Numbered from the stretch's first letter, positions 50,985 through 60,478 are shown. The stretch is DNA of 64,000 bases from Blastocatellia bacterium (GCA_963765495.1 CAVXWP010000015.1:64001-128000); one strand, 5' to 3'. Numbers and translations: made by a program. The notes: generated by a model from the sequence alone, not told the origin.

Positions 50985-52340
50985 ATGACGAAGCGAATCT
51001 ACACCGCAGAGTGGGTGCTGCCTGTGAGCGCGCCGATGATTTCAGACGGAGCGGTCGCCATTGAAGATGACCGGATAATTTTTGTCGGCGCGAGACGCGC
51101 GGCTGAAAGTCATCCCGAACTCGGTGATGCCGAAACTATTCAACTTGGACGGGCGGCGCTGCTTCCGGGTTTTGTAAACGTTCACACTCATCTGGAACAG
51201 ACGGTGATGCGCGGGTTTCTTGAAGACCTCGGCTTTCGCGACTGGATTTTGAAGCTGACCCGGGCCAGAAATGAGAGGCTTTCAACGGACGATTCGAACG
51301 CGTCGGCTCTGCTTGGCGCGGCCGAAGCTATCCGCGCGGGCGTCACAACGGTTGCAGACACCGGAGATTCATCCTCGCCCTTTGACGCGATTCGAGAAAG
51401 CGGGTTGCGAGGCATCGCTTACCGTGAAGTCTTCGGCCCCGACACGGCGCAGGCCGCTCTCAGCCTCGACGGACTCAAGGCCAAAGTTGATGATATGCGC
51501 GCAAGAGAAACCGGGCTTGCCCGCGTGGGCGTCTCTCCGCACGCGCCTTATACCGTCTCGGGCGATCTGTTTCGCCTTGTGACCGAGTATGCGATTCTGG
51601 AATCGCTCGATATGTGCGTCCACACGGCAGAGTCCGAAATGGAGCAACACATGATGTATTTTGGCGAGGGCGAATTCGCCGATGGATTGCGCGCTCGCGG
51701 CATCGAGTGGAATGCTCCGGGCACGTCTACGATCAAGTATTTCGAAATGCTTGGCGTGCTTGATAACGCGCCGCTGCTCATACATTCGGTCAATGTTACT
51801 GACGAAGATATAGACATCATAGCCCGGTTCGACGCGCGCGTAGCTCACTGCCCCACGTCAAATGCGAAGCTCGGTCATGGCAAGGCAAGGCTTGCGACGA
51901 TGCTTTGGGCGGGTGTCAGAGTCGGGCTTGGAACCGACGGCGTGGCGTCCAACAACCGTTGCGATATGATCGGCGAAGCGCGTTTTTGCGCGCTCGTCCA
52001 TCGCGCCTGGTCGCAAAGTTTTTCCGAGCCTTCGGCTGAAAGAGTGCTGAGACTTGCCACGCTTGACGGGGCGCGGGCGCTCAATCTCGAAGCGGAAATC
52101 GGTTCGCTTGAAGCGGGCAAGCAGGCCGACATAATCGCTATAGACCTTTCTCGCCCACACAACCTGCCCGTGAATGATCCGGTCGCGGCTATAGTCTTTA
52201 GCGCGATGGCCTCTGATGTGACGCTTACGATTGTGGCGGGCCGCCTGCTTTACGATGGCCGCGCGCTAAAGACGCTCGATGAAGATGAACTTCGCATCAG
52301 GGTAGAGGCGGCGCTTGACCGTTTGCACCGGGCTGGATAA
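50985..52340 (+). CDS. Metal-dependent amidohydrolase (MtaD/SsnA-like deaminase family)
   Basis: [41 protein letters not shown]. Confidence 0.9.
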
Positions 52341-52439
52341 AAAATCGCGGCGACTTATTTCTTATCCGAGCAGCCCGAAACGCTCTCGGCATCGGCGGTC
52401 AATCCGATTTTGACAGGTCCGGTTTCGCTGACTTGCCGC

Positions 52440-52970
52440 TCACGGGATCGTTATTCTCCCGGTCCAAACGCCGGGTTTGACCCTGCCGCTTCGCGATGCG
52501 CGTCCAAGCAGTACCCCCTCTCCCGAAACGCCCGCAAACGCGCCCGTGCCGCCCGTGATCGTAAAGGCCCCATCGAGAAGCGAAGTATCCGGCCCCGTCG
52601 CCACATCGGTTCCGCTGTAAGTGCCTAAAATCTCATCGCCGGTTGCAAAGATGATCTTGAACCGTCCGTTTGTGAAATTTGGGTCCGAAGGGTCATCGAT
52701 TATGCAGTGGGTCTGATGGACCGTGACCGGGCGAATCTGGCGTAGAAAACTCGCAAATCCTGTCCCCTCTATCGCCACTACGAGAGAAGGGGGATCGCAT
52801 CGCGCCGGGTCCGGAAAAGGGTCTCCAATAAGATTGCCTTTTTCTATTACGGCGACGAACGGCAGTTCTCTTAAGGGCGTAACTCTATCGCCGCGAACGG
52901 GTGCGATTGGGAGCCCTAGAAGGCTCATGATCGCACAAGAGATCATCAACGCTCGTTTGCTTGAAATCAT
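52440..52970 (-). CDS. Secreted beta-rich protein, dirigent/allene-oxide-cyclase-like
   Basis: Signal peptide, TGDEILGTY, FTITGGTGAFAGVSG; AAGGAGG SD. Confidence 0.65.
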   Translation of the reverse strand: MISSKRALMISCAIMSLLGLPIAPVRGDRVTPLRELPFVAVIEKGNLIGDPFPDPARCDPPSLVVAIEGTGFASFLRQIRPVTVHQTHCIIDDPSDPNFTNGRFKIIFATGDEILGTYSGTDVATGPDTSLLDGAFTITGGTGAFAGVSGEGVLLGRASRSGRVKPGVWTGRITIP

Positions 52971-53049
52971 AATTGCCTCCTTCTCTCTTCTGATTGAGAG
53001 TGTCTATCATCGCGCATCAAACGGCTGTAATCAGGGTCACAGGCTCTCT

Positions 53050-54912
53050 TTATGGACAGGTTGCCAGCGCAAAGGTGTCCTTGCGACCGGTCGTGCTGAT
53101 AACCTTTATTTCATTCGGCACTGGAACCCCGCCCGGACACGGTCTAACGAGGTCCATTGCTTTTTTGGCTACCAGTTTTCCTGAGTTCTTGAATTTGGTC
53201 TTTTGCACCTCCTGATCATTGATAAGAACCATATCGCCCCGTTGAAAATTGAAACCTTTGACGGTGATATTCCTGCCCGTATTGCCTTTCCTCTCCTTGA
53301 CGGTCGTAATGATCGGACCGTCGGTCCATTCGACTGTAGCTGCACAAGAGAAGGCGTTGCCTTCCACCGAGCCGCTTATCTCGATGGTGTCAACGCCAGG
53401 CATATTGTTGCCTCTGTAGCTAAAGTTTACCTGTCCGCTCGAATCTGTAATACCAGTCCTGGTCAGCCCCGTATTTGGGCCGCTTATCACATCGAGATCA
53501 ACGGAGATTCCAGAAGCAGGCTGGCCGCTCGAAAAGACAGTAGCCGCAACCGCGTATTCCCCGCCCAGAGGTTGCCTGGCGTGGAGCGGATCAACAGCGC
53601 AATTAGCATCCAGTCTGAAGATATAAGCCGCGCCTGAATTGCTGCCCCTATCATCATCTCCCATAGAGCCGGCGACGACTCTTTCTCCGCCCAGAGCCAC
53701 CGGGAATCCAAAACCGTCGCCTGCGCTCGCCTCCATAGCGATGAGTTTTGGCAGCTCGATCCATGCGTCCCCATCTCTTACAAACACATGGGCTGCACCC
53801 GAATCGCAATTCGGGTCGCCAGGACACGCATTATCGTCGCCAGAAGCACCGCCGACGATCGTATCTCCGCTTATTGCTATCGGCTCGCCAAACAAATCGC
53901 CCGCTTTGCCATCCACGGCGACGAGTTTTTGCTGCTCGGTCCACGCGCCCCCGTCTCTTACAAACACGTAAGCCGAACCTGACTGATTGCCCGCATCGTC
54001 ATCCCCCGAAGCACCGACGACGATAGTGTCACCGCTGATGGCTACCGAAGCGCCGAACAAATCAGATACGGCCGCATCTGCGGCAGTGAGCTTTTGTTGC
54101 TGGGTCCAGACACCCCCCTGTCTTACAAACACATAGGCCGAGCCCGAATCGCAGTTTATAGTGCTGGGACACGCATCGTCGTTTCTCGAAGCTCCGATAA
54201 CTATTCTATCCCCGCTGATGGCAATCGAATTGCCGAATTCATCACCTGCCGCCGCGTCTGCTGCCGTGAGTTTCTGACGCTGGGTCCAGAGGTTTCCCTG
54301 TCTGGTAAAGACATAGGCCGAGCCCGAGTTGCTGCCCGCATCATCGTCAAACCGGGCTCCGACGACGATAGTGTCACCGCTGATTGCTACCACATTGCCG
54401 AATCTGTCATCCGCATTTGCGTCACTGGCGGTGAGCTTTTGCTGCTGGGTCCACGCGCCCCCGTCTCTTACAAACACATAGACCGCTCCCGAATTGCAAT
54501 CCGGATTGCCGGGGCACGCATCGTCGCCAAAGACGGCCCCGACGACGATAGTGTCACCGCTGATCGCTACTGAAATGCCGAACAAATCAAATACGGCCGC
54601 ATCTGCTGCCGTGAGCTTTTGCTGCTGGGTCCAGATGTCTCCGTCCTTTACAAACACATAGGCCGAGCCCGATCCGTTGCCGGCATCATCATCAAGCTGC
54701 GCGCCTACTACGATAGTGTCACCGCTGATTGCAACGGTGCCGAACTGATCGCCTGCCGCCGCGTCCCCGGCAGTCAGCTTCACTCCCTGCGCCAGAGCCA
54801 TACCGCTCGGCGGCAAAACCATGCTGCCGAACGCGCTTGCAATCGGAATCCACATAGTGGCTATGACCGCACAAGAAATCACCAGTGCTTGTGCGCCTTT
54901 TCTTTGTTTCAT
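53050..54912 (-). CDS. Secreted FG-GAP 7-bladed beta-propeller with Ig-like C-terminal domains
   Basis: Seven repeats of KLTAxD...FG..VAISGDTIVVGA..DD...SGSAYVF; Big_1-like TDSSGQVNFSY. Confidence 0.9.
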   Translation of the reverse strand: MKQRKGAQALVISCAVIATMWIPIASAFGSMVLPPSGMALAQGVKLTAGDAAAGDQFGTVAISGDTIVVGAQLDDDAGNGSGSAYVFVKDGDIWTQQQKLTAADAAVFDLFGISVAISGDTIVVGAVFGDDACPGNPDCNSGAVYVFVRDGGAWTQQQKLTASDANADDRFGNVVAISGDTIVVGARFDDDAGSNSGSAYVFTRQGNLWTQRQKLTAADAAAGDEFGNSIAISGDRIVIGASRNDDACPSTINCDSGSAYVFVRQGGVWTQQQKLTAADAAVSDLFGASVAISGDTIVVGASGDDDAGNQSGSAYVFVRDGGAWTEQQKLVAVDGKAGDLFGEPIAISGDTIVGGASGDDNACPGDPNCDSGAAHVFVRDGDAWIELPKLIAMEASAGDGFGFPVALGGERVVAGSMGDDDRGSNSGAAYIFRLDANCAVDPLHARQPLGGEYAVAATVFSSGQPASGISVDLDVISGPNTGLTRTGITDSSGQVNFSYRGNNMPGVDTIEISGSVEGNAFSCAATVEWTDGPIITTVKERKGNTGRNITVKGFNFQRGDMVLINDQEVQKTKFKNSGKLVAKKAMDLVRPCPGGVPVPNEIKVISTTGRKDTFALATCP

Positions 54913-55049
54913 AAATACCTCACCCCGCCGCCTTCACTGACCGGCGAGAGCCTCGCGTCGAAGTCCCTGAGCCCCGGCGTCAGGTCTATGGGCTGCTGGT
55001 TGCTTGCGGGCGAAAATTCAAGCCTTAGGCCCGTCCTGCTGAACGGCAA
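54909..55049 (-). pseudogene. Fragment B: 46-codon mini-ORF paralogous to part of the 55626-56303 gene
   Basis: 54921-55030 matches 55788-55897 (IDLTPGLRDFDARLSPVSEGGGV identical); stop overlaps the FG-GAP ATG. Confidence 0.8.
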
Positions 55050-55083
55050 GCCTGTCTATTCGCTCTTGTGTTTTTTCTTACGC

Positions 55084-55491
55084 TTATCTCTTCTTAAAGG
55101 CCTTGATGTCCGCCTCCAGCTCCTGAAGCGCGGAGGAAAACCTCCCCTGTAGCCTCTTCGCGGCACTCAGGCGATTTTGGGGATCAAGAAGCTCTTTCAC
55201 CAGGTTCGGCTGTGGACTCGAGTCTCCGGCTACTGCGCCTATTAAGCCCGCGAGGAGTTGCTCGTGGACCCAAAGTCGCTCAACAAGCTCGTTAATCATA
55301 AAGCCACCAATGATGGGACTGGGGTCCGGCTGGGGTAGCGGAGGCAATATGACCGTCGGTGGCGGCAAGAGACCGAATCTCCATAGATAGTGACGATCCC
55401 AAAAAAGATCGGTAAATTCTCTACATGCGGCATCGTCTCCTTCTCTACAGCGCCGGAAGAGACCGGCTTCAAAGGCAGGAATGTTAATCAT
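55084..55491 (-). CDS. Hypothetical Pro-rich/coiled-coil protein
   Basis: 135 aa, AAGGAGG SD, PQPDPSP and SPQP motifs, C-terminal heptads. Confidence 0.75.
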   Translation of the reverse strand: MINIPAFEAGLFRRCREGDDAACREFTDLFWDRHYLWRFGLLPPPTVILPPLPQPDPSPIIGGFMINELVERLWVHEQLLAGLIGAVAGDSSPQPNLVKELLDPQNRLSAAKRLQGRFSSALQELEADIKAFKKR

Positions 55492-55613
55492 GTGGACCTC
55501 CTTATCTCGTTAATGATAAACCTACCATATCGTTGAACCAGCAGGCCGTCGGTCAGCGAGTTAATCGAAGGGTTTGGACCGAGCGTGATGTTGGCCTTGC
55601 AAGGTTTGCGCAC
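55488..55613 (-). pseudogene. Fragment A: 41-codon mini-ORF paralogous to part of the 55626-56303 gene
   Basis: 55541-55599 matches 56057-56115 at 50/59 nt; GAGG then GTG start; stop overlaps the next ATG. Confidence 0.75.
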
Positions 55614-55625
55614 AGGATCGCCCTC

Positions 55626-56303
55626 TTATTGCGAACTGCCTGCGACCTCAAGCTTTCGTGGCATGGTCTCGCCCGTGTCATTGCCTATTTGCACTATCGT
55701 TTGCTCCGCCCCTCCTAGGATCGTCAGAAAGCAGGGTTGCGGCGCTTGGCGAATATCGAGGAAGCTCAATTCGATCCTCAGATTCCACACCCCGCCGCCT
55801 TCACTGACGGGCGAGAGCCTGGCGTCGAAATCCCTGAGCCCCGGCGTCAGGTCTATCGGCGGGAGATTGCTGTTTGGCGGAAACTCTAGCCTTATGCTCA
55901 CCCCGCACCCTTGAGGGTCTCTCACACGGAACCCGTTGCCTCTCTGGCTGAAACAACCTGCGGGGATGAAGATGATGTCGCTCGGGGTAACAACTCCGGC
56001 CTGTTCGGGGTTTGAGACGATGTCCTCAGGGGCCATAATCCCGGCATGTTCAACCCGCAGGTCGTCAGTCACCGGGTTAATCGAGGCGTTTGGACCGAGC
56101 GAGATGTTTGCCCTGAAGTCGAGGTTGACACGGTTTAGCTGGAACTGCGGAGCGAAAGCTTCGGTCGCTTCGAGTTTGGTATCCAGGCTCTGAAATGGTG
56201 TTGTGGGTGGTGGAATGGGGTCCTGCGCGGCTGCCTTCGGCGCTGCCGAAAAGAGGGACAGGATCGCCACGGCGATTATTGAAAACGATGCTGATTTCTT
56301 CAT
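55626..56303 (-). CDS. Hypothetical secreted protein (225 aa)
   Basis: GGAGG SD, Sec signal MKKSASFSIIAVAILSLFSAAPKAAA. Confidence 0.8.
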   Translation of the reverse strand: MKKSASFSIIAVAILSLFSAAPKAAAQDPIPPPTTPFQSLDTKLEATEAFAPQFQLNRVNLDFRANISLGPNASINPVTDDLRVEHAGIMAPEDIVSNPEQAGVVTPSDIIFIPAGCFSQRGNGFRVRDPQGCGVSIRLEFPPNSNLPPIDLTPGLRDFDARLSPVSEGGGVWNLRIELSFLDIRQAPQPCFLTILGGAEQTIVQIGNDTGETMPRKLEVAGSSQ

Positions 56304-56439
56304 AAATTCCTCCCGAAGAGTGTTGGAAATGTGGGTCAAGAGTCGCGTCGGCAATCTATATATGGAGCAACCGACCTGAACGACCGGCTGCCGAGGTGTA
56401 CACGCAGGGCAAGTGTAAGAGGAAATCAAATCTCAAACA

Positions 56440-56457
56440 ATCGCATAATGATGTGAT
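56440..56457. promoter_or_regulatory. Candidate response-regulator box 1
   Basis: ATCGCAT-AATG-ATGTGAT, 22 nt from a minus-strand -10 TACACT (56412-56417). Confidence 0.65.
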
Positions 56458-56495
56458 ATTGAGATCACAGGAGACAGGCTAAAGTTTCAGCCCCT

Positions 56496-57176
56496 TCAGA
56501 CTAGCTTTTCGCGGATGGCTCGCACGACGGCTTCCGATACGCTGTGGACCTGAAGCTTGTTGTATATCGAGCGGATGTGTGTTCTTACGGTGTCAATGCT
56601 GATGTCGAGATGATCGGCCACCTGTTTGTAGGCCATCCCACGCACAAGGCATTGCAGCACGTCGTGCTCTCTTTCGGTGAGGTCGAGCAGCACGGCAGAA
56701 GCGGGCTTGCTCGATTCGCGCGAGACTGTTCGCTTTGCCCGCAGCAAGTCCAGCACCGTGCGCGCCACTCCGGCCGTCAGCGGCGCGCCGCCTGAATTTA
56801 TCATTCTGAGTTGCGACAGTATTTCGTCCGCCGGGGTCTTTTTGAGGAGGTAGCCGTCGGCCCCCGCGCTTATCGCTTCAAGTATCGTGGCGGGCTTTTC
56901 AAAGACTGTCAGGATTACTACCGCAAGATCGGGCAGAAGCTCTTTCAAACGGCGGGTCGCTTCGATCCCGCTTATGCCCGGCAGCTTGAGGTCCATCAAG
57001 ACGAGTCTCCACTGAGGCGCGCGGTTTGATTCCAGCGAGGTCTCTACCTCTTCGAGCGCGTCGCGGGCGGACTCGAAACTTGCAGCAAGAGAAAAACCTC
57101 TGGCGTGCTTGAAGAGAGTTTCGAGACTGCTGCGGTAACGAGGATCATCCTCGATGATGGTGATCTTTATTTCCAC
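56496..57176 (-). CDS. NarL/FixJ-family response regulator
   Basis: EDD, LMDLKLPG, GADGYLLK, LTEREHDVL, TVRTHIRSIYNKLQV. Confidence 0.96.
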   Translation of the reverse strand: MEIKITIIEDDPRYRSSLETLFKHARGFSLAASFESARDALEEVETSLESNRAPQWRLVLMDLKLPGISGIEATRRLKELLPDLAVVILTVFEKPATILEAISAGADGYLLKKTPADEILSQLRMINSGGAPLTAGVARTVLDLLRAKRTVSRESSKPASAVLLDLTEREHDVLQCLVRGMAYKQVADHLDISIDTVRTHIRSIYNKLQVHSVSEAVVRAIREKLV

Positions 57177-57227
57177 GGCGATTTCCTGCCCGGGGTTACA
57201 GGATAAGCTCAGGAGGCAGATTTTTCC

Positions 57228-57245
57228 ATCGCATAATCGTGCGAT
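57228..57245. promoter_or_regulatory. Candidate response-regulator box 2
   Basis: ATCGCAT-AATC-GTGCGAT, 22 nt from a minus-strand -10 TATCCT (57200-57205). Confidence 0.65.
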
Positions 57246-57284
57246 GCAAGGTTGCGCGCACGGCTGTTGCGGGCTGAAACGGGT

Positions 57285-60179
57285 TCAGTGCGGATGAAAG
57301 ATCACCTTCACCGTAGTCCCTTTTCCGTCTTCAGACATCCACGAAATGTCTGCTCCGATCTCTTCGGCCCTGCGCTTCATGCTCAAAAGCCCCATCCCTC
57401 TTCGGCCTTCAGAGAGAGTCTTCATCAGCCCTGTTCCATCATCGGCTATCCACATCTGCCAGTTTCGCCCGGTGGGTTTCAGCCCGAACACGACGCGGCT
57501 TGCTGCCGAGTGGCGGGCGGCGTTGTGAAGCGCTTCGAGGGCTATGAGCTGAAGGTTGCGCCGTTTTGCAAGCGAAAGGTTTACCTTCGGCCAGATGTCT
57601 GGAACATCCATAGAAAAGATCGCCTGCTTTCCCGGGAATAACCGCTCCGCGTGCTCGATCAGATGATAGGCCAGCGATTCCAGATCATTCGAGCCGGGCT
57701 GTAAAGCCCAGACTATGTCGGTCAGCGAGGTGCCGAGTTCACGGCTTGTCTCGGCTATTTTCCTGGCCAGACTTATGCGCTCGGCCTCGGTCAATCCCTC
57801 ATCCGTCACGACCTTTGACAGAATGCCTATGCTGCCAAGCCCCGATCCGAGTTCATCGTGCAGGTCAATTGCGATGCGCGCCCTTTGTCTTTCCAGGCGA
57901 AGCAGAAACGTCAGACGAGCGCGATAAGCTGCGTAAAGCGCCGCGCCCAGAGCAAGAGAAAAGAGAGCCAGAACCCACCACTTCAGATACCAGGGGCCAA
58001 GAACCTCGAAGGCAAGCCTGGCCGATGTCGCGGACCAGTGAATCCCGTCGAGCGAGGCCCTTACCTCGGCCGCATACTTGCCCGGGCTGAGATCGACGAA
58101 TCTGAATAGCGGTTCGCGCGAGAAAGAATCTGTCCACGCGGCGTCGGGGTGAAGTCGATACTGGTAGCGGAGCAGGCTGCGGTCCCGGTAAGAAAGCGCC
58201 GCGAAATGAATCTCCAACTGATTGTGACCGGAAGGTATTTGAGGCGTCTGATTCAATTCCACTCTTCGCCCGTTCAGAATCAGATCAACAAGTTTCACAG
58301 ACGGGGACTGAGCGCCTGCTCGCCGCGCTTCTGCGGGCATATATACAACTCCGCTGGTCGTCGTGATCCACAAATCGCCGTTTGATTCTTCGATCAGGTC
58401 CTCGGCTCCTCCGACCGGAAACCCCTGCCAGCTTCCCAGCCGCTCGACAATCTCCCATCCACTATCAAGGTCAGGTCGCTCCTTCACTCGTATGCAGACT
58501 CCGTCGCCCAGAACCCATACGCCCCCTGCGGGCGAGAGAACCAATCCCCATATTCTGCCCGAAGGAAGGTCGTGCGAAGCCGGAATCACTTCCCACCCTT
58601 TCCCGCCGTAACGCCATACGCCTGCATTATGGGTAGAGGCCCACAAACTGCCCGATTGTAACTCGACGATGTCGGTCACACGGTTGACTCCTTCCAGCGT
58701 CTGGCAGGACCACGATGCCTCAGGGCCGGAATCAATCGCAGCCACCGATGCAGAGCAGACGCGGTTATCTGCGCATACCCAGAGACGCGCATGACTATCC
58801 CGGAAAACGGTTTCGATGATCGATTCGAACTTGTCCGCCCCAATGCTTACATGTCTGGAGTCGTCAGCCCCCGCGCGAAGAAGTCCGTGATCGGTTGCAA
58901 GCCACATGGTCTTATCGGCTTCGGGGCAGCAACTGTAGAGAAATTTATATTGAGGGAGCGATTGTTTTATGAATTGCCCGTTTAGGTAACGCAGCGAATC
59001 GCCCGCAAAAACATGAATCCAGAGCGCGCCATCGCCGTCTACGCATAGCGGCGATTTATGGTCGAGGTGCTGGTTGTGGACTCTCCATCTTCCCTGCGCC
59101 TTATCGAGTCGCCCGAGACCCTGCCAGGTGGAAACCCAGATGCCGCTTTCGGCCCGGGCCAGAAAGCGCGCGTGTGCGCTCGGCAGTCCGTCGCGGTCGT
59201 TAAAGGCAAGCGTTGCCGGTTCCGGGTATTGCACAAGGCCACGAAAGGTTCCGAGCCACAGGCTGCCTTCGCGGTCTACAATCAAGGGGCCGCCACTTGC
59301 AATACCATCATCAGGCCCAAGTATTTCAGGTTGCTCTTTCGGTCTGAGCGCGGCAAGGTACCGGTCGAATGATGCCCAGACGACCCGACCTCGGAGCGCG
59401 AGGTCTATGGGTCGGGCATTCTTTACACGGAGTCGCAGGGTAGCGCGGCCTTCGCGCAATTCCAGCACCTCTCCATCGCCGTTCGGATTCCAGGCGAGAA
59501 CATAAAACGCGCCGTCGGGATGAAGAAGAATATCCATCACCAGGGTATAATCGAATATCTTTCTTATATTCCGATCTGAATCAAGCTGCCAGATTGCGTT
59601 TCTCGTGAGCAGAAAGATGCTGTCATCAGGCCCGGGTCGCAACTGCCTGATCTGCTCATTGCCCAGAACCCCAATTGAGGCAAAAGCCCATTTGTGGTCG
59701 GCATCTCTGATCATCAAATATCCTTTGCCTGTTACCCACAGCCGCGTGCGGTCGCTGTTAAAGACAGCGTCTGTGACGTTGTCGAGCGGTCTCGCTTCCG
59801 GGCCGATCACGGGGCTCACGCCATCGGCTACGACCTGATAGAGCGCGAGTTGATCATCACGGGCCAGTATCTCTCCATCCCTGCCTGACAGCAAAAGATT
59901 TATGGTGCCTGTAAGGGTCTCTTTCGCCCAGGGGCGCATCTGGATTCCATCGAAGCGGACAAGCCCGCCGCTTGTGCCTATCCATAGAAAGCCCGAATCG
60001 TCCTGAGCCAGAGCATGGACTGTTGAGACGGTGAGGCCGCTGGTTTCGTCATAGTGCCTTTTGACACGTTCCTTCGCCATCGCCGAGTGCGGCCAGAAAA
60101 TAAGTAGGAAGAGACCGGCCAAACCGAGCGTTAATCGGTATATCGAGCGGGGGCGAGTCTTTTTGTGTGTGGTCAGCAT
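57285..60179 (-). CDS. Sensor histidine kinase with Reg_prop beta-propeller and Y_Y_Y domains, HisKA_3 type
   Basis: QDDSGFLWIGT-type repeats, YQYRL...PGKY..EVRA, TM, RIAIDLHDELGS, EALHNAARHS, DDGTG, GMGL; start uncertain (60179 or 60338). Confidence 0.92.
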   Translation of the reverse strand: MLTTHKKTRPRSIYRLTLGLAGLFLLIFWPHSAMAKERVKRHYDETSGLTVSTVHALAQDDSGFLWIGTSGGLVRFDGIQMRPWAKETLTGTINLLLSGRDGEILARDDQLALYQVVADGVSPVIGPEARPLDNVTDAVFNSDRTRLWVTGKGYLMIRDADHKWAFASIGVLGNEQIRQLRPGPDDSIFLLTRNAIWQLDSDRNIRKIFDYTLVMDILLHPDGAFYVLAWNPNGDGEVLELREGRATLRLRVKNARPIDLALRGRVVWASFDRYLAALRPKEQPEILGPDDGIASGGPLIVDREGSLWLGTFRGLVQYPEPATLAFNDRDGLPSAHARFLARAESGIWVSTWQGLGRLDKAQGRWRVHNQHLDHKSPLCVDGDGALWIHVFAGDSLRYLNGQFIKQSLPQYKFLYSCCPEADKTMWLATDHGLLRAGADDSRHVSIGADKFESIIETVFRDSHARLWVCADNRVCSASVAAIDSGPEASWSCQTLEGVNRVTDIVELQSGSLWASTHNAGVWRYGGKGWEVIPASHDLPSGRIWGLVLSPAGGVWVLGDGVCIRVKERPDLDSGWEIVERLGSWQGFPVGGAEDLIEESNGDLWITTTSGVVYMPAEARRAGAQSPSVKLVDLILNGRRVELNQTPQIPSGHNQLEIHFAALSYRDRSLLRYQYRLHPDAAWTDSFSREPLFRFVDLSPGKYAAEVRASLDGIHWSATSARLAFEVLGPWYLKWWVLALFSLALGAALYAAYRARLTFLLRLERQRARIAIDLHDELGSGLGSIGILSKVVTDEGLTEAERISLARKIAETSRELGTSLTDIVWALQPGSNDLESLAYHLIEHAERLFPGKQAIFSMDVPDIWPKVNLSLAKRRNLQLIALEALHNAARHSAASRVVFGLKPTGRNWQMWIADDGTGLMKTLSEGRRGMGLLSMKRRAEEIGADISWMSEDGKGTTVKVIFHPH

Positions 60180-60478
60180 GGCAGCTACAACTCTTGCCTG
60201 GCTTTTTTCGATTCTATGACGGGTAAGGCCAGGGCGCAAGAATACTTCGTTCCACCCCAAGAAACTGCGTGCCGGTTTACTGCTGCCTTTGCCTGCTGAT
60301 TCAACTCCGTCTTCGCTTGAGATTTTGCATTCCTTCACGGCGCTGCTTCGTAATTGATATCTGGGGTCATCTGAGTAGTCGTGCCGTTTGGAAACTTTAG
60401 TTGACCATCTCGAACCGGCGATGAATCCTTTGATTGCCGACCTCCAGAGGTTGTGATGAAGTCGCTCGAAATATACTT

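Follow-up and report, generated by a model that had tools for sequence, protein, structure and literature searches.

A 64,000-nucleotide (nt) stretch of DNA from a Blastocatellia bacterium (GCA_963765495.1 CAVXWP010000015.1:64001-128000; hereafter the window) carries on its minus strand a gene for a secreted protein of 225 amino acids (aa), which we call X (55626-56303; open reading frame (ORF) taken from the ATG that precedes the signal peptide). Downstream of X lie two short pieces of its own interior, A' and B', separated by an intact gene for a 135-aa protein and followed by a gene for a secreted FG-GAP protein. We conclude that A' and B' are probably what survives of a second X copy that stood between X and the FG-GAP gene and has since been destroyed. 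The locus would then look like an ordinary by-product of genome evolution, not a device for cassette exchange, and the two small ORFs that run through the pieces are probably not genes.

The history that we favour begins with a second X copy in this position, which may have been a tandem paralogue, as is found in a relative, or a displaced older allele, and which would have been subject to gene conversion with X. The middle of this copy would then have been replaced by a foreign 135-aa gene carrying its own ribosome-binding site, and deletions would have taken the 5' third and the 3' quarter of the copy as well as the spacer that followed it. The last deletion would have put the start codon of the FG-GAP gene directly behind B', so that the end of B' would now serve as its Shine-Dalgarno sequence (SD). 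The order of these events, the gene conversion and the exaptation of the SD are inferred. If correct, the locus offers a worked example of operon rebuilding, in which a foreign gene enters a tandem copy, deletions follow and a leftover coding stretch becomes a ribosome-binding region. It also holds a warning for annotators, who would most likely be wrong to call the two small ORFs genes.

Two interior segments of X recur downstream

A repeat search of the window (blastn) returned two direct repeats without gaps that link X with the DNA behind it, both far beyond chance. Repeat A pairs 56048-56115, which encodes X residues ~64-85, with relic A' at 55532-55599 (57 of 68 positions identical, 84%; E 1e-15), and repeat B pairs 55782-55906, residues ~133-174, with relic B' at 54915-55039 (103 of 125, 82%; E 1e-30), all four copies being on the minus strand. 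A codon table places both relics colinear with the parent and in the same codon phase, which bears out the initial annotation in its statement that two fragments follow the 225-aa gene in parental order. The rest of X (residues 1-62, 86-132 and 176-225) has no counterpart downstream. Thus the relics bear a significant, colinear and incomplete similarity to a functional gene, as pseudogene fragments do.

The two segments are 142 nt (~47-50 codons) apart in the parent and 493 nt apart downstream, where the interval contains the 135-aa gene; this gene had been described as sitting where the parent has a segment of ~50 residues, and the measured interval agrees. Compared with X, the stretch from A' to B' is longer by a net 351 nt (117 codons). 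All three of X, A' and B' are read in the same frame, since the end coordinates of their ORFs differ by multiples of 3, and the 135-aa gene forms an ORF of its own in a frame other than that of A'.

Each relic lies within a small ORF on the minus strand. That of A' (55488-55613; 41 codons, 41 aa; GTG start) is separated from X by the X stop codon TAA and four codons, the GTG lying 15 nt past the TAA, and it runs on for 14 codons past the homology. That of B' (54909-55049; 46 codons, 46 aa) starts with TTG. Both frames are open and end, as had been noted, in ATGA overlaps: the TGA of the A' ORF (55488-55490) overlaps the ATG of the 135-aa gene (55489-55491), and the TGA of the B' ORF (54909-54911) overlaps the ATG of the FG-GAP gene (54910-54912). 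These overlaps arise because the second codons of both downstream genes begin with A.

No copy of X, A or B other than these two fragments was found in the 7.3-Mb genome, and X was the sole match to B' among 5.8 billion proteins. The suggestion that the same fragments might flank other cargo genes therefore found no support, either in this genome, in the X loci of three relatives (below) or, for B', in the protein collection. Comparison of the tail of the A' ORF, the spacer before B' and the left junction with the matching parts of X gave no significant similarity, apart from a marginal 11-nt match described below.

The second copy has a precedent in a relative

X belongs to a very rare, unnamed family. 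A collection of 5.8 billion clustered proteins contained three homologues (59, 58 and 40% identity), and 4 genomes out of 401 in the class, one of them the window's own, gave X-family matches. The relatives compared belong to genera other than the window's, and three of them (G013, G492 and G499) have an X locus. In the window the genes run, in the downstream direction and all on the minus strand, from a sensor histidine kinase with Reg_prop propeller repeats (57285-60338) and a LuxR/NarL-type response regulator (56496-57176), which served as the synteny anchor, through X, the A' ORF, the 135-aa gene and the B' ORF to the FG-GAP gene (53050-54912), which encodes a 620-aa secreted FG-GAP_2 repeat protein (Pfam, E 4e-133) with a C-terminal Ig-like region, and finally a gene for a 176-aa secreted protein (52440-52970). 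G492 has, in this order, a kinase, a regulator (69% identical to that of the window), X, a gap of 118 nt and an FG-GAP-repeat protein, and G499 has a regulator (66%), X and then another repeat protein. G013 encodes a 730-aa protein that ends in an X domain; behind it come first a 237-aa X and then a 937-aa FG-GAP_2 protein. The FG-GAP protein of the window is 38% identical to the neighbour in G013 and 45% identical to that in G492.

To judge by this synteny, regulator-X-FG-GAP is the ancestral arrangement, and tandem X pairs exist: a second intact X copy occupies the same place in one of the three relatives (G013), with a single X in G492 and G499. All that the window has in addition is ~720 nt between X and the FG-GAP gene. 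The synteny also means that the FG-GAP gene is not inserted cargo. The initial annotation had seen here a paralogue split by cassette insertions, and one part of this stands, in that the middle of an X-type copy now holds the apparently foreign 135-aa gene; the other part fails on the FG-GAP gene, which is an ancestral neighbour. The search for intact paralogues that it proposed was answered by G013, with its tandem X pair upstream of an FG-GAP_2 gene. None of the X-family loci of G013, G492 and G499 contains A- or B-like fragments.

The tandem copies of G013 (L014:5971-7288) are 78.5% identical in DNA overall, but stretches of 93-100% identity, which extends to third codon positions, alternate with stretches of 60-70%. 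Such a mosaic is what conversion between tandem copies leaves behind, and it suggests that conversion is ongoing in the X family. The relics are mosaic in the same way.

As a separate observation, X is only 27-29% identical between loci (the window against L017 and L018) whose regulators are 66-69% identical. By this comparison X is a secreted protein that evolves very fast under a two-component system that is itself conserved. X matched no family in Pfam, NCBIfam or PADLOC. Its predicted structure is all beta (predicted local distance difference test score (pLDDT) 72.7); a VIA structure comparison gave generic Ig-like or beta-sandwich rows only (Z no higher than 6.4, which lies within background), and a Foldseek search of the PDB at E<=0.001 returned nothing for this model or for that of the 135-aa protein. 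Likewise, an Atlas search gave no usable match for either protein, and none of 65 pattern matches of the X-family alignment to genome contigs was confirmed.

The 135-aa gene is real and appears foreign

The gene between the relics (55084-55491, minus strand) is bona fide. An exhaustive HMMER search placed its product in an unnamed family with 47 cluster representatives at E<=1e-3 and 13 at E<=1e-10; nearly all members are of 125-155 aa and are matched end to end, and they share the motifs FWDxxYL, PDPxP, GDPxPQPN and RLxAAK in the alignment. The AlphaFold model is helical (mean pLDDT 81.9). No match to the protein was found in Pfam, NCBIfam or PADLOC. A further repeat, D3, had hinted that A' and the C-terminal half of this gene were once a single ORF; we reject this idea in view of the full-length family alignment.

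The family profile found no member in 52 other genomes of the same family or in 400 other genomes of the same phylum, the window's genome being the sole match. Given this absence the gene looks foreign, and to judge from its distribution it appears to have been horizontally acquired. Distant members occur in three cyanobacterial metagenome-assembled genomes (MAGs). The family had no match in viral contigs or plasmids, and searches of genome contigs with the single 135-aa protein and with P0006, one of its closest homologues, gave spurious short matches only (a Bacillota MAG and Parabacteroides).

The closest DNA relative is a metagenome contig, L013, with 76% aa identity over residues 1-38; it is one contig from a single metagenome scan and ends after residue 38 of the homologue, so that it covers the 5' side only. 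The Crp-like protein on L013 reaches no more than 32% identity with any sequence of 40 relatives, and L013 therefore comes from an unrelated organism. Homology between the window and L013 starts 11 nt before the ATG and includes both the SD of the gene, GGAGGT (~55496-55501), and the ATGA, and upstream of this point L013 is unrelated to the window and contains no X-like sequence. Since the SD and the ATGA are conserved in so different a context, the 135-aa gene brought its own SD, and A' was not the source.

We found no inverted repeat flanking the gene in the repeat search. No integrase appeared in a Pfam check of seven ORFs of >=150 aa between 43 and 64 kb, which showed genes of efflux, amidohydrolase and two-component type; attC-type sites were not modelled.

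Several observations concern the family elsewhere. In two cyanobacterial MAG contigs (L021:3980-6010 and L022:741-2933) a 135-aa-family gene is followed by a gene for a 482-aa RTX (HemolysinCabind) repeat protein and preceded, on the opposite strand, by one for a protein with effector-associated domain 4 (EAD4), which is fused to TPR in L021; the two loci are alike and count as one observation. EAD domains are among the subjects of PMC7159879. In L023 an ATP-dependent ligase stands upstream instead of EAD4. The family may thus be linked to secreted calcium-binding repeat proteins, and its position before such proteins in two phyla is maybe of more use biologically than the relics themselves. 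Additionally, L013 carries a ~200-nt repeat twice upstream of the 135-aa homologue (1623-1900 and 2600-2830), with near-identical ORF translations in several frames.

Junctions and the probable Shine-Dalgarno sequence of the FG-GAP gene

Five bases before the FG-GAP ATG stands GAGGT, which lies inside the end of the B' repeat (54915-54921), in agreement with the earlier claim that the end of B supplies the SD of that gene. At this site the parent reads GTGTGGAAT and B' reads GTGAGGTAT; a TGG-to-AGG difference in B' gives GTGAGGT where X has GTGTGG. The end of B' is thus probably now the SD of the FG-GAP gene, a function that would be exapted.

Between A' and the block homologous to L013 lies a 22-nt filler (55506-55527, minus strand; repeat D3), 19 positions of which copy 55288-55309 within the 135-aa gene in the same codon phase; none of 100 shuffles of the window gave a second match. 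We read this segment as templated filler from illegitimate joining, of the kind typical of template-switch joining. The 44-nt spacer from the 135-aa stop to B' (55040-55083, minus strand) has no significant similarity to X. Three nt past the X stop, an 11-nt segment (55612-55622, minus strand) matches nt 36-46 of X, in the signal-peptide region, exactly and colinearly with A' and B'. It may be a third piece of the lost copy, but the match is marginal, as 80 of 2000 shuffles score as well. A hairpin at the junction of the 135-aa gene and B' is weak (z -1.3).

Divergence of the relics

Substitutions were counted by the Nei-Gojobori method between each fragment and X, and the pairwise counts include changes in the parent lineage and rest on small samples. 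Over its 22 codons A' differs from X by 3 synonymous and 8 non-synonymous substitutions (omega, the ratio of non-synonymous to synonymous rates, 1.0; dS, synonymous substitutions per site, 0.19), and polarisation by the protein-level outgroups P0002 and P0003, the closest orthologues of X, assigns it at least 4 derived replacements against 1-2 in X. By these counts A' appears to be evolving neutrally. The initial annotation had itself allowed that fragments unique to this locus and decaying neutrally would count against its proposal that they are retained, and in part this is what we see, the fragments being unique to the locus in the searches made and A' apparently neutral.

B' is more heterogeneous. 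Codons 5-39 show 9 synonymous and 6 non-synonymous substitutions (omega 0.18), with synonymous sites near saturation in codons 5-16 (pS, the proportion of synonymous differences, 0.735), and the last 23 codons (69 nt) show 3 synonymous substitutions and no non-synonymous one (dS 0.185). All four differences reported earlier in ~70 nt of B were synonymous; we count three in these 69 nt, or four with the neighbouring Pro codon. The best split of B' separates a 5' block of 50 nt with 17 differences (66% identity) from a 3' block of 75 nt with 5 (93%; Fisher p 1.8e-4), and the differences per block, 11/68, 17/50 and 5/75, are likewise uneven (chi-square p 3.6e-4). Such uneven identity (93% in B' 3', 84% in A', 66% in B' 5') would be best explained by past conversion between tandem copies.

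The edges of B' have lost invariant residues of the family (GCGVS to SRTG and WN to RY). Ancestral residues that X has lost, by comparison with the same outgroups, are kept in the relics, namely a T in A' and an L and a Q in B'. Since the fragments keep ancestral states, they are old relatives of X and not recent copies.

In neutral simulations that placed the observed number of random substitutions on the parental segments, 66% of trials for B' and 82% of those for A' ended without a stop in the frame, and with half the substitutions 83% and 91% did. Open frames are therefore expected by chance (P 0.66-0.91) and provide no evidence of selection: the small ORFs are open because they inherited an open frame from the parent and have since taken up too few substitutions to close it. 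No selective explanation is needed when relics of this kind show ATGA overlaps or open frames.

Some observations nevertheless weigh against a history of simple decay. Non-synonymous differences occupy 0 of 51 sites in the 3' block of B' and 8 of 48 in A' (Fisher p 0.002), at similar dS, and three random substitutions in that block would all be silent with P 0.016. This silent-only pattern is the one signal that is hard to read as purely neutral, and it leaves room for some constraint there. Furthermore, the 193 nt of the relics contain no indel at 17% divergence; a common frame for X, A' and B' together with a net insertion of 351 nt has a chance that we estimate at ~1 in 9; and the GTG start of the A' ORF is plausible, with GAGGG 7 nt upstream. 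With regard to the 3' block of B', recent conversion from X would explain the silent-only pattern as well as selection would: by a rough hand estimate, which takes one constrained and one free lineage, conversion and chance together give three silent differences with a probability of ~0.1.

Are the small ORFs translational couplers?

Translational coupling through ATGA stop-start overlaps is a known arrangement, and the initial annotation had proposed that the fragments were retained for this purpose. Translation would then pass from X to the GTG of A' and through the ATGA to the 135-aa gene, and from there by way of B' to the FG-GAP gene. Several features are compatible with such a role. The stops of both small ORFs overlap the next start, the GTG of A' follows X closely in the same frame behind GAGGG, and the differences at the 3' end of B' are all synonymous. 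Nor is there a terminator-like site between the minus-strand genes, weak ones occurring inside coding regions only, and an Rfam scan of 52000-57500 gave no match.

We nonetheless regard selection for coupling as unlikely. The downstream genes differ from those of ATGA-coupled operons in having SDs of their own, one of them conserved independently of the small ORF. Indeed, the strong SD of the 135-aa gene is conserved in a foreign context where coupling is unneeded, and because the gene has this SD its initiation is, from the sequence, unlikely to depend on translation of A'. An open frame, the sole thing that coupling demands of A', is expected by chance, with omega at 1.0 and the overlaps following simply from the second codons. 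B' fares no better as a coupler, having only a TTG start, 35 nt past the 135-aa stop and without an SD; moreover, coupling needs no amino-acid conservation and so leaves the silent-only pattern of B' unexplained. Finally, the two leaders fold no better than shuffled sequences (z 0.09 and 1.08).

Was the block imported whole?

A second alternative is that A', the 135-aa gene and B' arrived as one block from a related donor in which the middle of X had already been replaced, and landed by illegitimate recombination. The relics would then be foreign alleles. This would account for the ancestral residues that the resident X lacks and for the near-saturated synonymous divergence at the 5' side of B', and the junction at the X stop and the 22-nt filler do point to illegitimate joining. 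We consider an import of this kind improbable, to much the same degree as coupling. In L013 the homology starts just upstream of the ATG with no X-like DNA before it, so there the gene travels without X flanks. The absence of the 135-aa family from all 52 same-family genomes leaves no candidate for a related donor, and local conversion is a simpler route to the near-identity between the 3' block of B' and the resident X. In addition, the GC profile shows no break across the region.

Are the fragments anchors or silent cassettes?

The initial annotation had also suggested that the fragments might serve as recombination anchors for cassette exchange, by analogy with the orphan modules of polymorphic loci. 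A related idea is that they are silent donors of the pilE/pilS type, in which several silent partial copies donate to one expressed gene. The relics share with pilS copies the absence of a 5' end, a lack of expression according to that comparison, a place beside an expressed gene and a mixture of conserved and diverged blocks. Promoterless, 5'-less, colinear copies directly downstream of an expressed gene would suit either role, as would the mixing in B' of diverged (66%) and near-identical (93%) blocks, and the patchy tandem pair of G013 shows that conversion occurs in the X family.

Even so, we judge either role very improbable. In contrast to pilE/pilS there is here a single copy, interrupted by an unrelated intact gene, with no known initiating element. 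Each fragment occurs once, and no related fragments or other X-type sequences are present in the genome; therefore there is nothing with which cassettes could be exchanged. The longest runs of identity between the fragments and X, 26 and 22 nt, are short for efficient homologous recombination, and recombination between direct repeats such as these would remove part of X and not swap cargo. Population variation was likewise not seen. Among sequencing runs, the locus was located in one of DNA and in none of RNA. In that DNA run (X1; fragmentary, ~4x), 13 short contigs, 12 of them at >=99% identity, contain no rearrangement joints, with 54860-55515 outside their cover. Runs X2 and X3 gave only short matches below 90-95% identity, which come from other organisms.

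In Rhs/CDI loci a main gene with core repeats and a toxin C-terminus is accompanied by orphans, each a core fragment fused to an alternative C-terminal domain and followed by an immunity gene. The locus resembles them in that a fragment of an upstream gene precedes another small gene downstream. However, X has no toxin, Rhs or CDI domain and is modelled as a 225-aa beta-sandwich-like protein, no alternative C-terminal domain is fused to the fragment (A' is followed by only 14 codons), there is a single set, and the repeats come from the middle of the protein. The displacement of Rhs C-termini is a topic of PMC2935791. With neither a toxin core nor an alternative domain, the analogy to orphan modules breaks down.

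We give similarly little credence to the idea that the 3' 69 nt of B' are selected as a leader and SD for the FG-GAP gene and also exchange sequence with X, which would make B' a minimal silent cassette able to convert a strand-loop-strand on the surface of a secreted protein that evolves fast. The locus would matter more only if this block proved to be maintained.

Fit to tandem-paralogue remnants

This brings us back to the reading that A' and B' are what is left of a second X copy. The evolution of tandem paralogues with interlocus gene conversion is discussed in PMC2568036. Like remnants of this kind, the pieces are colinear, ungapped and promoterless and show mosaic divergence, and a relative has an intact, conversion-like pair. 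What differs is that here the pair is broken, an apparently foreign gene stands in its middle and the end of one remnant probably forms the SD of the next gene. What the locus does match is the remains of a tandem paralogue that was disrupted, a kind of remnant already known.

Further observations on the FG-GAP gene

The contexts from SD to start of the FG-GAP gene and of X are identical at 13 of 14 positions (54908-54921 against 56299-56312). This match may reflect chance or common usage in translation initiation. At 14 nt it does not stand out from the other 14-15-mers of the repeat search. The C-terminal 181 aa of the FG-GAP protein (53050-53595, Ig-like) are 44-49% identical to parts of 485-543-aa frames in five genomes of the same family (G011, G026, G034, G016 and G001). 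In these frames the FG-GAP repeat region is unmatched, and in the flanks that were fetched X, the regulator and the 135-aa gene are unmatched as well. From this distribution, the C-terminal Ig-like region looks like a shuffled domain.

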